This document shows positions 31,143 through 64,000 of a stretch of DNA of 64,000 bases, piece after piece; position 1 is the first letter of the stretch, and the number at the start of each line of letters is the position of its first letter. Below the pieces are notes generated by a model. It ran no database searches. It was given only the letters and a program-made list of their open reading frames with translations, and had not been told where the DNA came from. Source of the stretch: Actinomycetota bacterium (lineage in GTDB: Bacteria > Actinomycetota > Thermoleophilia > RBG-16-64-13); NCBI GenBank assembly GCA_018830645.1, contig JAHJSA010000010.1, positions 2,394 to 66,393 on the forward strand, in the 5' to 3' direction. The translations under genes and the position numbers were made by a program.

Positions 31143-31239
31143 CGGAGTGGCATCCGGTCTGGTGGCCGGCCCGGTCTTCAAAACCGCTGTTCGGCGGTGA
31201 TCCCGTCGAGGGTGGGTTCGATTCCCACGCCGCTCCGCC
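31143..31239 (+). tRNA. selC: tRNA-Sec (selC), anticodon TCA, CCA encoded
   Basis: 8-bp acceptor stem GGAGTGGC/GCCGCTCC (one G:U), 6-bp D-stem with 4-nt loop (CCGGTC-TGGT-GGCCGG), anticodon loop CTTCAAA (compare E. coli selC GGACTTCAAATCC), long variable arm, T-arm GTGGGTTCGATTCCCAC, discriminator G then CCA. Confidence 0.8.
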
Positions 31240-31419
31240 ATTTGGTTTGCAGTTGCGATATGCAGACTGGCCAATGCTTGTTGTACGCATCCAAAGGGTG
31301 CGGGGGACGCACCAGCTGAGCGTTCCGCTAGACGGCTCACTTTGGTCGGTCTGCACGTAGTTGGATCACAATGTTCTGCTGCGGCCAATCTCGGCTTCAG
31401 ACACATAGGAGGTTCTTGA

Positions 31420-32580
31420 GTGGGAGAACGCAACCAACAAGACGAACACGAGCGCAGCGTTGTCGAGCAGGAACTGTCCGCCATCCGCGAGGACATCAAG
31501 GGCGAGCGCTTTCAGGACTTAACCAACGACATCAAGTCCGGCGACTGGTTCGCAAAGCTCCTTGCCTCCGCACTACGGACCTACGCCGAAAAGGCCACGC
31601 CGGAGTTCTTCGCGAACAAGTACCCCGGTCTCCCGCCGGACGCTGTAGTCGACCGGCAGGTGGCGCTGGCGAAGCGCTACGCCGGCATCTCGGGCGGGGT
31701 TACCGCTAGTGCCTACACTGCTGCTGTTGCCGCTACCATCGGGAGTCAGGGTGGTGCGAGCCCGCTGACGGTGCCAGCTGCGTTCACGGCGTTTACGGTG
31801 GACTTGTTCTATCTGACTACGCTCCAACTTAGACTCGCATATGACATGGGTGTTCTCTACGGCAAACCTGCGGATATCGAAGATCCCGAAGACCTCTACG
31901 ACCTGCTCAGAGTGGCATTCGGCGTGAAGGCGACCGAAGTGGCCGCGTCCGCGATCAACAAGGCGGCCCCCGAGGTTGTACGACAAGGCGTGAAGGCGGC
32001 CGTAAAGGGAGCGACGCTTCAATCGCTCAAGGCTCTTCCGGTCATCGGCAAGCACCTACTGCGACGCAACTTAATCAAGATCGGCATTCCAGCGATCGGA
32101 ATCCCCCTGTCGGTCGGGATGAACGTTTGGAGCACGGGCGCCGTGGCTGGCACCGCACGCCAGATCTACAGGGACAAGGCGTTGGCGGACGAGAAAGCAA
32201 GGGAGTTCGTAGGTAGCTTCACAGACCACGGGCTCCTGGTCTCCGTGGTATGGGCGGCCATTCGGGCCGATGGTCCGACGCAGCCAGAAGAGATGTGTCT
32301 TCTGAAGGACTTGGTTGGGTTCGCCGACCAGGTGGACGGCTTGGATGCCAATGGTGGCGATTTTGGAGTCGACCTCGATGTCGAATCGCTCTTCGCCAAA
32401 GCCGCCGCGCTCGGGCAAGACGAGCGCGACACCCTCTTCGAAGCTGCGTGCCTTGCGGTGACCATTGATCGAAAGGTGCACAGGAAGGAGAAGGAGTTCC
32501 TTCAGAGGCTCGCCGCAGTGACATGCGTTGACTGGGACCCAGGACGTCTGAAAGAGACGATCCGAAGGAACAGGGTCTGA
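31420..32580 (+). CDS. hypothetical protein; EcsC-like N-terminal region and TerB/DjlA-N-like C-terminal region (tentative)
   Basis: 386 aa, the first gene after tRNA-Sec. The C-terminus (MCLLKDLVGFADQVDGLDANGG...ERDTLFEAACLAVTIDRKVHRKEKEFLQRLAA) resembles TerB-type alpha-helical domains. Confidence 0.45.
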   Translation: MGERNQQDEHERSVVEQELSAIREDIKGERFQDLTNDIKSGDWFAKLLASALRTYAEKATPEFFANKYPGLPPDAVVDRQVALAKRYAGISGGVTASAYTAAVAATIGSQGGASPLTVPAAFTAFTVDLFYLTTLQLRLAYDMGVLYGKPADIEDPEDLYDLLRVAFGVKATEVAASAINKAAPEVVRQGVKAAVKGATLQSLKALPVIGKHLLRRNLIKIGIPAIGIPLSVGMNVWSTGAVAGTARQIYRDKALADEKAREFVGSFTDHGLLVSVVWAAIRADGPTQPEEMCLLKDLVGFADQVDGLDANGGDFGVDLDVESLFAKAAALGQDERDTLFEAACLAVTIDRKVHRKEKEFLQRLAAVTCVDWDPGRLKETIRRNRV

Positions 32581-32720
32581 GGCGAAGCGAGAGAGCGTAC
32601 AACAAACGGATCAACCTGACTCGCTTCGCTCGCGGCTCAACTGCAACACGTTGGACGTTCGGCTGCCCTGTCCCAACATCCGCGGATGGATGACTGCACC
32701 ATTTATGGTACACTTCTGAG

Positions 32721-33299
32721 GTGAACGAATCCCCCGAGAGTCGGCCCGTGATCGCCGTTTGCTTCTACGCCACGTCCGGAGGGACGGAACCCGTTCGCGA
32801 GTGGCTTCTCAAGCTGACGAAGGGGGATCGGCGAGCCGTAGGACAGGACATCAAGACGGCGCAGTACGGCTGGCCGCTTGGGATGCCGCTCATTCGCAAA
32901 CTGGAGCCCGGCCTGTGGGAGGTCCGGACCCACATCGCGGGTGGGATAGCCCGGGTGCTGTTCACGGTGGACGGCCAGACAGCGGCTCGCGGACCTTCGG
33001 AAGGAGTGAACATGGTGAATGAGAAGCACCTTGGAAGTGACTTTGACGATTTCCTGCGCGAGGAGGGTCTCCTCGACGAGGTGGAGTCCGTCGCCGCCAA
33101 ACGCGTGATCGCTTTCGAGATCGCTCGGGAGATGGAGCGTGCTCACATCACGCAGTCCGAGCTCGCGCGGCGGATGAAGACCAGCCGGTCGGCGGTTGAA
33201 CGACTACTTGATCCCGCCAATCCGTCGGTCACATTGTCGACGCTCGAGCGTGCCGCACACGCCGTGGGCAAACGATTGAAGATACAGCTGACGGCGTAG
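32721..33299 (+). CDS. HigB-like (Gp49/PF05973-type) toxin N-region fused in-frame to a HigA-like XRE-HTH antitoxin (possible decayed TA)
   Basis: N-terminal half VIAVCFYATSGGTEPVREWLLKL...GIARVLFTVDGQ matches Gp49-type HigB but lacks the usual C-terminal LLHGFxKK segment. It runs with no stop into MVNEKHLGSDFDDFLREEGL...ITQSELARRMKTSRSAVERLL (HigA HTH). An internal AAGGAG plus ATG at 33012 marks the HigA start. Confidence 0.55.
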   Translation: MNESPESRPVIAVCFYATSGGTEPVREWLLKLTKGDRRAVGQDIKTAQYGWPLGMPLIRKLEPGLWEVRTHIAGGIARVLFTVDGQTAARGPSEGVNMVNEKHLGSDFDDFLREEGLLDEVESVAAKRVIAFEIAREMERAHITQSELARRMKTSRSAVERLLDPANPSVTLSTLERAAHAVGKRLKIQLTA

Positions 33300-62116: not shown

Positions 62117-62337
62117 GACACAACAATATCGTTGTGTAGATGCGATGTCAATCACAGCTTGGCCGGACTGATCCAAGCGCGCGACCGTTCTGCCGAGGCG
62201 AGGAGCCGAACCACCTCTGGCGCCGGTTCCCCGATGTGGGCATATTTGTGGAGGAGAGGTGCTAATCAGGGGATCGAGCAGACTCGCTTCGCTCGGTGCT
62301 CATCCCCAAACCCGTTAGTTATGGCTATGGCTAGTGC

Positions 62338-63192
62338 CTAGAGGTAGATCGCGATTGGGACGACGATTGCAGCGGGAGCTCGGACCGGGTTCCGCAATTC
62401 CGCCGGAATAGCCTTCTTCTTCAGCGCGCGCTTCTGGTCACGATTGAGTGCGAGACCATCCAGTCCGCCCAACAAGTCGAAGAGGTCCATGGTTTCAGAT
62501 TGCGCGAGCTTCCGCCGTATCTTCGCGAACAGGGTTGCCTCACCAGATAGCTCGTCGCGCGAAATGCGTAGGGCATCCGGGTTCAGATGCGCGATGAACT
62601 TGAACTTCTTGGAGGCGACAAGCTCCATCTTCAACGGGATTCCGCGGCTGGCCTCTAGCTGGCCCAGCAAGCCCAATCCAGCCACCGCCTCCGCTGTGTC
62701 AGAGTCGACCTCTTCCGGAGCGATAACTTGCATGAGACCCATGAGGCCGTCGAGTTTGCCCGCGATTGATCCGATCGTCGACTGAGTGAGCTCGACCTCC
62801 GCCTCGATGAGCTGGTTCCTGCTCAATCTGCTCCAGTCGTCATCGCTCATGGCCTCCCAGTACGTGAAGCCTTCTTGACCCTCGAGCGTCGAATACAGCC
62901 GCTGGAACTTCATCGCGTCGGTCGCCTTGACTTCTCGTCGGACTTCGGTGGCCCGTGAACGTTCTTTCTTGCCACCGGCTTTCACGCCAGCTGCTCCGGC
63001 ACCCGCTTCGAGTCCGCCGCTGGACTGGGTCGTCTCGGTGACTACCTCGTCCACCACAACATCCTGCATCCCGGCGAGGTAGTCGTCGAGAAGCTTGGAA
63101 TCCAGATACAGGAACTTCCTCAAGACATGACCTTCCAAGTATCCCTCCCAACAGCCGTACACTGCGCCCCACTCATGCCATTCTATCCGCAA
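62338..63192 (-). CDS. hypothetical protein
   Basis: 284-aa ORF; no family recognised. Confidence 0.4.
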   Translation of the reverse strand: MRIEWHEWGAVYGCWEGYLEGHVLRKFLYLDSKLLDDYLAGMQDVVVDEVVTETTQSSGGLEAGAGAAGVKAGGKKERSRATEVRREVKATDAMKFQRLYSTLEGQEGFTYWEAMSDDDWSRLSRNQLIEAEVELTQSTIGSIAGKLDGLMGLMQVIAPEEVDSDTAEAVAGLGLLGQLEASRGIPLKMELVASKKFKFIAHLNPDALRISRDELSGEATLFAKIRRKLAQSETMDLFDLLGGLDGLALNRDQKRALKKKAIPAELRNPVRAPAAIVVPIAIYL

Positions 63193-63329
63193 GCGTACCT
63201 AACTAGCGCATTGAGTGGATGGTGCGCCCTCGTGAGGTATCCTCGGCAGTAAAGCTGCGCGTGGGTGCACCGCACCTTTCCGCCCGACGTTAGACTCTAA
63301 GCCCGGCCCAGCCACAGGGAGGTTCGGCG

Positions 63330-64000
63330 ATGACAGTCGATGTGAGACTACAGGCCCTACGCACTGCCGTAACGGAACTCATCGCCTTCGAGAGCGATCT
63401 TGAGGCGAGGCTCGAGGGGGAGCGAGAAGTGGTTCGCGCGTATCCCGAAGGCCTGGCTACCCTCGAGCGCTTCCGGCCGACGGTGCATGCCCAGCGGGAA
63501 CGACTGGCGAGCTACCTTGAGGGCATCGGTGGCGCCGAGGCGGGGGCCGCGACACAAGGCGGCCTGCCGTTCATTCCCGCCGCCGGGGTCTCGGCGGCGT
63601 TGCGCGGCGTCTGCGTCGCCTTCAATCACGGCGCGATCAGCTACGCGATGCTGTACGAGATGGCGCTACGTCTCTACGAGCCCGCTCTCCGGGAGATCGC
63701 ACCGGAGCACGTGGAGGTCTACGTTGATGCGGCGTCGACGCTCTACCGTCTCCTGCCCGCCGCTGTAGCCTGGGAGTTGGCCCAGGACGGGCTTCAGTGC
63801 TCCTGCATCTGCCCCATGTGCGGGCTGGGAGTCTGCGGGTGTGTCTCTTTCGGGACGCAGACTCTGGTGGAGACCTGGCGTGAGGCGCTCGCCGCTGAAT
63901 CGGAGCTGCCCGGCTTCGCTCTCCAGCCTCCGAAGCCCGAGAGTGAATTGGCGCGGGCCGGTGTGCGCGGCGGAGACAGACTCCTTGCCGTCGACGGCCA
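63330..64000 (+). CDS. partial CDS (runs off the window): helical N-region, Cys-rich CxxC segment, then the start of a PDZ-like domain
   Basis: The reading frame is open from the ATG at 63330 to 64000, which is why it is absent from the stop-delimited ORF track. ...QCSCICPMCGLGVCGCVSFG...GVRGGDRLLAVDG resembles a PDZ GD-x-I/L-x-V-x-G start. Confidence 0.4.
   Translation, partial: MTVDVRLQALRTAVTELIAFESDLEARLEGEREVVRAYPEGLATLERFRPTVHAQRERLASYLEGIGGAEAGAATQGGLPFIPAAGVSAALRGVCVAFNHGAISYAMLYEMALRLYEPALREIAPEHVEVYVDAASTLYRLLPAAVAWELAQDGLQCSCICPMCGLGVCGCVSFGTQTLVETWREALAAESELPGFALQPPKPESELARAGVRGGDRLLAVDG

Follow-up and report, generated by a model that had tools for sequence, protein, structure and literature searches.

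The 64,000-nt stretch analysed here, hereafter the window, is part of a 71.7-kb metagenome contig (JAHJSA010000010.1) from an uncultured member of the Actinomycetota. Downstream of a gene for selenocysteine tRNA (tRNA-Sec) it carries a long run of defence and toxin-antitoxin (TA) genes, in the middle of which lie two genes of an Hma defence system, hmaA and hmaB. The contig runs 5356 bases past the window end, to window-equivalent position 69356, and stops within the island, which is thus at least 38 kb long. A space of 11 kb separates hmaA from hmaB and is occupied by an OLD-like ATPase, the Septu pair ptuAB and four Schlafen-type genes, cogA-D, as well as by two composite remnants of Hma genes, referred to as junction scars. 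The features at the centre of this arrangement are:

31144..31240, plus strand: tRNA-Sec, anticodon UCA (ARAGORN; Rfam RF01852, 72.6 bits against a gathering score of 47)
31241-31252: trailer TTTGGTTTGCAG, common to many relatives
34537..38112, plus strand: hmaA, full length, with SNF2-rel_dom, Helicase_C and a C-terminal NOV_C nuclease-like domain (Pfam); PADLOC HmaA, 1680 bits
38201..39910, plus strand: OLD/ABC-type ATPase (AAA_15/AAA_21), its N-terminus matching the OLD structure 6p74
39995-41374 and 41371-42033, plus strand: ptuA (486 bits) and ptuB (137 bits) of Septu
42277-43449, plus strand: cogA, AlbA_2 and HATPase_c_4
43268-45076, plus strand: open reading frame (ORF) of cogB, real start probably near 43.5 kb; DUF4062 and HATPase_c_4 only
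45118..45482, plus strand: junction scar 1, the hmaB upstream region and approximately the first 98 nt of hmaB, joined to the hmaA 3' end
45478..47154, plus strand: cogC, Schlafen AlbA_2 and HATPase_c_4, matching PDB 3lmm
47240..47397, plus strand: junction scar 2, in which the initial 141 nt of hmaB run into the final ~25 nt of hmaA
47395..49059, plus strand: cogD, paralogue of cogC, AlbA_2 and HATPase_c_4
49124..52006, plus strand: hmaB, full length, DUF1156 N6-adenine methyltransferase (Pfam); PADLOC HmaB, 1589 bits
52010..52135, plus strand: first ~42 codons of an ABC ATPase, a remnant with its Walker A motif destroyed, directly after hmaB

An earlier reading of the letters alone (the sequence-only reading) had described a well-formed tRNA-Sec, a switch from housekeeping to defence and TA genes immediately after it, and a GC content that is lower there in patches. 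Both tRNA predictors agree on the tRNA, and nearly all the families named have been recovered with Pfam, PADLOC or NCBIfam. The proposed check on GC content and codon usage gave a clear difference: GC is 0.683 before tRNA-Sec and 0.619 from there to the contig end, and the median GC content at third codon positions (GC3) is 0.84 (30 genes) before and 0.73 (23 genes) after it (Mann-Whitney p = 5e-6). As regards the patches of lower GC, the one placed at 52-55 kb does hold the minimum (0.536 at 54.5-55.0 kb), whereas 34.0-34.5 kb is only mildly low (0.628); a further minimum lies at 41.5-42.0 kb (0.564). Within the Hma region, GC3 is 0.85 in both hmaA and hmaB versus 0.65-0.78 in the genes between them.

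To compare the 3' side of tRNA-Sec with relatives, collections of genomes and metagenomes were scanned with its final 26 nt, complemented by two protein look-ups; the resulting comparison set consists of 11 non-redundant complete tRNA-Sec loci, the window included. Among those of the 11 with enough downstream sequence, at least six distinct gene contents follow the tRNA, and all six are made up of defence, TA or integrase genes. In five independent relatives, similarity to the window ends 0-40 nt past the tRNA-Sec 3' end. The tRNA-Sec of four loci is identical to that of the window (97/97), and each of them carries other genes at this place, so that the synteny check named by the sequence-only reading as a possible refutation comes out in its favour. 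L004 shares the upstream HD gene (88-90% nt identity); its match ends 12 nt after the tRNA and is followed by AbiEi/AbiEii and an ADP-ribosylglycohydrolase. In L019 the match likewise ends 12 nt after the tRNA, and the flank is of the type found in L022, which diverges exactly at the tRNA 3' end and continues with HNH, HIT, TIR and AbiE genes. L006, the closest relative, has an HD gene 85% identical to that of the window and shares with it the tRNA, a 40-nt trailer and a Phd/ParE pair (90% nt identity), the sole island module in common. It lacks the 386-aa gene, the degenerate HigBA and the hmaA found in the window, and has its own different HigBA pair and a BrxC-like ATPase. Two more distant loci carry, after the tRNA, an integrase at 135 nt (L012) and a GmrSD_N fragment (L013). 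The tRNA-Sec gene is, on these comparisons, evidently the left edge of the variable region.

The clearest traces of integration come from CAWBOK010000003.1, a metagenome-assembled genome (MAG) of a related member of the Actinomycetota, in which a helix-turn-helix (HTH) gene and the gene of a tyrosine integrase (Pfam, 97.9 bits) come after tRNA-Sec. Further downstream, part of the tRNA is repeated twice: at 20 kb as a perfect 66-nt copy that extends from the anticodon loop to the 3' end, and at 23.7 kb as a second copy of ~40 nt, with AbiE between the repeats and an integrase fragment beyond. In L014 a complete tRNA is directly joined to the flank that here lies past the second repeat (95.6% identity). 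Empty or near-empty variants of this site are thus seen in L014 and L025, that of L025 being near-empty; a true empty site has been found for this related lineage only, not for that of the window. Partial tRNA copies account for 7 of the 16 metagenome matches to the 26-nt tRNA-Sec 3' end. Since partial tRNA copies, integrases and empty sites all occur in relatives, tRNA-Sec can be regarded as an integration hotspot in this clade, and the relatives document its 3' end as a much-used attachment site for predicted tyrosine-integrase elements. In L015, which is related to the CAWBOK MAG, positions 176-225 hold a third partial copy of the tRNA-Sec 3' part, 50 nt long and more diverged (84-90% identical). 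It is 1.7 kb away from the complete tRNA and suggests that one more integration took place long ago.

Within the island, the sequence-only reading had recognised an SNF2 helicase and a DUF1156 methyltransferase and listed them apart. Both families are present; what had been missed is that they are hmaA and hmaB, which, judged by sequence, delimit a single Hma system that has cargo embedded in it. HmaA is 75% identical to the HmaA of a Meiothermus plasmid, and HmaB is 70-75% identical to those of Meiothermus and Burkholderia plasmids, where, in other phyla, the order is hmaA-hmaB-hmaC. The Hma system was defined by Payne et al. 2021 (PMC8565338), and 62.7% of Hma systems carry embedded genes, Septu commonly among them (Payne et al. 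2024, bioRxiv 10.1101/2024.01.29.577857). A 2026 paper (PMC12839542) re-filed Hma as a Type-1 DUF499-centred BREX-related system and noted that genes of Schlafen-type RNases (Schlafen plus HisK-like plus winged HTH) are often linked to BREX and BREX-related loci. The third gene of the system, hmaC, which encodes a DUF499 ATPase that in many cases is fused to HEPN, gave no match across 69 kb in a tblastn search with two HmaC proteins, and no ORF after hmaB matched the PADLOC HmaC model. What follows hmaB is the ABC ATPase remnant, homologous to the ATPase located between hmaB and hmaC in L027. Since HmaC is missing and only an ATPase stub follows hmaB, the Hma locus is evidently truncated at ~52.13 kb with deletion of hmaC, and the Hma frame is probably no longer a complete working system.

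Most of the cargo belongs to families that the sequence-only reading had named. Its Septu-like pair is present as a Septu type I pair, the two genes being adjacent with a 4-nt overlap, and its COG2865 array corresponds to the four genes with SLFN_AlbA_2 and/or HATPase_c_4 domains. Its OLD nuclease holds in part: the ABC ATPase is there, whereas residues 331-569, the C-terminal 240 aa, gave no TOPRIM or Pfam match at E <= 1 and no PDB sequence match. Among the Schlafen-type genes, cogC and cogD are 65% identical in amino acids (~75% in nucleotides), while cogA and cogB show 24-30% identity, between themselves as well as with cogC and cogD. Three homologues of cogC were looked up (74%, 74% and 71% identical); all three lie between hmaA and hmaB with hmaC next, and all three keep the 4-nt overlap with hmaA, the matches coming from several phyla. 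These loci (L027-L034, from Zixibacteria and other metagenome contigs) resemble the window in cogC and cogD and in the junction with the hmaA 3' end (the 4-nt overlap), and their HmaA is 76-82% identical to that of the window. The difference is that in the window only the locus ends remain, as scars around cogC and cogD. The Schlafen-type start overlaps the hmaA stop in every looked-up locus of L027-L034, as would be expected if Hma has a conserved form with four genes. In L030 the region upstream of hmaA holds AlpA and a D5_N primase, in L031 a tyrosine integrase.

The two scars were found by self-comparison and alignments, which revealed three copies of the hmaB start, the third being the intact hmaB itself. 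In scar 1 the hmaB part (45118-45248) is 95% identical to 49089-49219, and the hmaA part is internally deleted: 45249-45308 is 93% identical to 37655-37715, and 45312-45482 is 84% identical to 37943-38113. A 111-aa ORF there matches the HmaA C-terminus, and the stop codon of this remnant overlaps the start of cogC (GTGA). In scar 2 the hmaB part (47240-47383) is 96.5% identical to 49121-49264, the join lies at the microhomology GGCGCGGGCG, and cogD follows directly. Both scars are out of frame and therefore non-coding. The hmaB 5' copies, at 95-96.5% identity, are far closer to each other than cogC is to cogD, which argues against a simple recent tandem duplication.

The simplest reading of the scars would be the stacking of two cassettes, each consisting of an hmaA 3' end, a Schlafen gene and an hmaB 5' start, into a resident locus. 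The donors would have been other Hma loci of the widespread hmaA-cog-hmaB-hmaC form; the conserved hmaB 5' end would have served as the homology anchor, and short microhomologies would have been used at the illegitimate joints. Circularised fragments integrating via the hmaB 5' end could have produced this outcome, and deletions between tandem loci could have done so equally well. A wider proposal, which we regard as possible if rather doubtful, is that hmaB'::'hmaA scars mark a general path for the embedding of defence genes in Hma and BREX-related systems, anchored on the hmaB 5' end and stacking cargo with no dedicated recombinase. It is in line with the conservation of the hmaB 5' end (80-94% aa identity across phyla) and with the recurrence of scars of this type, twice in the window and once more in an unrelated metagenome locus; one of the three types of cogC-homologue locus, the L027 type, carries an additional hmaB 5' fragment of its own. 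Several points weigh against it. A survey of hmaB 5' ends covering 56 places in 55 plasmid records found extra fragments to be rare elsewhere, and none occurs in five viral-contig loci (0/5), so that the generality of the hmaB 5' scars is unsupported by these two sets; the recombination route of the window may be a local accident. Decayed Hma loci were also observed on IMG/VR contigs: L038 keeps only the last 163 hmaA codons before hmaB, and the hmaB of L041 is interrupted by ~2.1 kb.

Between tRNA-Sec and hmaA the following features were annotated:

31420..32580, plus strand: 386-aa protein, weak LBF_2804-family match (27.9 bits against a cut-off of 80)
32721..33299, plus strand: degenerate HigBA, a single 192-aa ORF, with a Gp49/HigB N-terminal part fused to a HigA-type HTH
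33407-33691 and 33696-33998, plus strand: Phd antitoxin and ParE toxin (Pfam)
34319..34359, plus strand: 41-nt conserved motif upstream of hmaA

The 386-aa gene was considered as a novel recombinase and rejected, as it resembles a membrane or TerB-like protein and has no recombinase signal. The HigBA of the sequence-only reading has both of its parts, HigB and HigA, yet both are encoded by one ORF, HigB being cut short (profile positions 1-62 of 90) and fused to HigA. The 41-nt motif recurs upstream of the GmrSD_N gene fragment beside tRNA-Sec in L013 (5985-6025) and L023 (226-266), with 93% identity over 41 nt and a 27-nt core, ACATACTTTCCACAGCGGCTCCGGTAC, identical between the window and the L013/L023 lineage; it is possibly a shared promoter or operator of defence operons. 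A half-site of the motif, GCGGCTCCGGT, recurs 33 nt downstream in the window (34380-34390). A 35-nt repeat (91% identical; AACAA.CGGATCAACC...CTCGCTTCGCTCGCGG) was observed at 32601-32635, after the 386-aa gene, and at 53873-53907, before the kinase gene.

Beyond the Hma remnant the island continues with further modules:

53957-55288, plus strand: Ser/Thr kinase (Stk2 model, 158 bits)
55532-56347, plus strand: Abi_C protein
56450..58498, plus strand: two ORFs of 367 aa and 284 aa, no family assigned
58717..59358, plus strand: sce7726-family protein, P4 cII-like (158 bits)
59267..63162, minus strand: operon in the order DUF6414, DUF6932, XRE-HTH with M78, Beta protein
62338-63162 and 61679-62176, minus strand: DUF6414 and DUF6932
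60378-61655, minus strand: XRE-HTH with M78 peptidase (PD-Lambda-2_B, 295 bits)
59267-60430, minus strand: Beta protein (PD-Lambda-2_C, 186 bits)
63330..64000 and on to 64142, plus strand: PDZ-domain protein, crossing the window end

The kinase and Abi parts of the kinase-HTH-Abi module, the sce7726 and Beta proteins and the XRE-ImmA pair of the sequence-only reading are all found here, in the families listed. The neighbouring DUF6932 and DUF6414 proteins gave no match to the PD-Lambda-2_A model. Past the PDZ protein the contig encodes PIN/DUF6364, Unstab_antitox, Phd/ParE, MazEF and Phd before ending; TA genes thus continue to the contig end, and the far boundary lies beyond 64 kb as had been predicted. 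A search with the terminal MazF for the continuation of the island led only to a paralogous MazEF module, located on a different contig from this sample, and not to the continuation. On that contig (k141_60652, L035) the MazEF at 9712-10336 has 94% DNA identity to the one at the island end and sits inside a different defence cluster, with an AAA_13 ATPase, a helicase, an N6_N4 methyltransferase and Mrr; it seems that TA modules travel from one defence locus to another among co-occurring genomes. Septu, the Schlafen-type putative RNases, the OLD-like ATPase, the kinase/Abi_C pair, the PD-lambda-2-like XRE-M78/Beta proteins and the TA pairs would all be expected to act as independent anti-phage or addiction modules.

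On the other side of tRNA-Sec, the features of note are:

18807-20354 and 19918-22278: selA and selB, 9-12 kb upstream of tRNA-Sec
23500-29500: accessory-type genes on the core side, namely DUF2089/SHOCT, a second Phd/ParE pair (24792-25405, minus strand) and an AbiEii-like ORF (26945-27466)
29045-29542: 165-aa ORF with no Pfam match
29561-29699, minus strand: match to the SAM-I/IV riboswitch (43.5 bits against a gathering score of 41.1), upstream of the 165-aa ORF
30988-31094: 18-nt tandem repeat, consensus GTGGCCGGGTCTTGTGGG, 5.9 copies, between the HD gene and tRNA-Sec

At the position of the tandem repeat L006 has ~1 kb of extra sequence, and 3 kb past its tRNA-Sec it carries a second stretch resembling part of the SAM-I/IV riboswitch region. 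The distance from the DUF2089 region to tRNA-Sec is ~2.8 kb in L022 versus ~6.5 kb in the window; the upstream side is therefore variable too.

We consider it probable that a mosaic defence and TA island, with an Hma core at 34.5-52.1 kb holding embedded cargo, extends from 31241 to at least 69356 on the 3' flank of tRNA-Sec in an uncultured member of the Actinomycetota. Its material would have arrived in several steps through tyrosine-integrase elements at tRNA-Sec, after which the island would have been rearranged and would have partly decayed. A number of observations weigh against this reading. The tRNA-Sec 3' end is present as a single copy, with no repeat in the window and the 5.4-kb extension even when up to three mismatches are allowed (<=3). 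Between 31241 and 69356 there is no Pfam Phage_integrase match, and tblastn with a relative's integrase found no remnant in the same interval. The sequence-only reading, which had found no integrase or attachment-site duplicate inside the window, is thus borne out, the extension likewise containing no tRNA, integrase or repeat. The tRNA-Sec flank types of the relatives, sought in the window and extension, yielded nothing relevant, only the 41-nt motif being notable, and the gene adjoining tRNA-Sec is not a recombinase. The upstream stretch at 24.6-30.8 kb also bears TA and Abi-type genes and differs in length from L022, so the contrast between core and island is not absolute. The source, moreover, is a metagenome contig. 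Since no integrase, repeat or flank type of the relatives occurs in these 38 kb, it is from the relatives, where integrase-mediated arrival is documented, that we infer it for the island of the window. No replication, conjugation or virion genes were seen that would point to a plasmid or phage origin of the whole segment.

These negative results suit a different account, in which a change-tolerant zone downstream of tRNA-Sec acts as a non-mobile 'genomic sink', gathering defence and TA genes by homologous or illegitimate recombination without ever having been integrase-borne. Such an account would explain 38 kb lacking any integrase or attachment repeat, as well as the mosaic relation to L006, with which only the first 40 nt and the rearranged Phd/ParE pair are in common; the internal scars, too, record recombination that needs no integrase, and Payne et al. 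raised a sink hypothesis for embedding. It fits poorly with breakpoints in relatives that lie at the tRNA 3' end or no more than 12 nt from it, with the integrases, empty sites and partial copies of tRNA-Sec (40-66 nt) that relatives have at this position, and with the Hma loci elsewhere in which cog genes adjoin integrase or AlpA/primase genes; on balance we hold it to be unlikely. An assembly artefact is far less probable still. It would require a core contig joined to an unrelated mobile element at tRNA-Sec, or hmaB 5' repeats placed in the wrong order, and it draws some plausibility from the MEGAHIT-type metagenome assembly, from several co-occurring lineages with identical tRNA-Sec and from a composition shift falling exactly at the tRNA. 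However, L006, an independent MAG from a different study, links the HD gene, the tRNA, the 40-nt trailer and Phd/ParE, and the Logan assembly of another run is 100% identical over 51589-66735. The repeat copies are 84-96.5% identical over <=171 nt and have no 141-mers in common; as the 144-nt repeats differ in sequence, they should not confuse the assembler, and junctions of the hmaB'::'hmaA type must exist in the reads. The interpretation as a tRNA-Sec-linked island with an Hma core is thus retained as the probable one.

The locus is a clear and well-delimited case of a defence hotspot linked to tRNA-Sec, from an actinobacterial lineage that has been little sampled, and a usable set of relatives, attachment repeats and empty sites is at hand for it. 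Annotation pipelines that allow few genes between Hma components would miss it and list its parts as unrelated. The two scars are a sequence-level record of cargo stacking inside a defence system, a question left open by the authors who described embedding. Current concepts are unchanged by these results.

The selC/tRNA-Sec islands of Enterobacteria, such as LEE, SHI-2 and SPI-3, are the closest parallel for the boundary of the island. Pf phages of Pseudomonas also integrate at tRNA-Sec (PMC7549136), which means that the use of this site outside Enterobacteria is already on record; the suggestion of the sequence-only reading that selC serves as an island hotspot holds for this clade. As in these islands and phages, DNA of deviating composition starts at the tRNA-Sec 3' end, and in the relatives tyrosine integrases, tRNA 3' direct repeats and tandem elements are found as well. 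In contrast, the host of the window belongs to an uncultured lineage of the Actinomycetota, defence and TA genes rather than virulence genes make up the whole cargo, and the window copy has no visible integrase or repeat. Against the defence islands of Makarova et al. 2011, the locus is a typical example, with at least six recognisable defence modules and several TA pairs in 38 kb.

Compared with described Hma systems, the window shares full-length, co-oriented HmaA and HmaB and, with those that carry embedded genes, Septu, an ABC ATPase and Schlafen-type genes between them, all in one orientation. It differs by the lack of hmaC, by eight genes between hmaA and hmaB where the published survey allowed three per gap, and by the two hmaB'::'hmaA junction scars inside the cargo. 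All its parts are of known kinds: islands linked to a tRNA, defence islands, and Hma systems in which Septu and Schlafen-type genes are embedded. What is unusual is how large the embedded array is, that hmaC has been lost, and that there are two junction scars.

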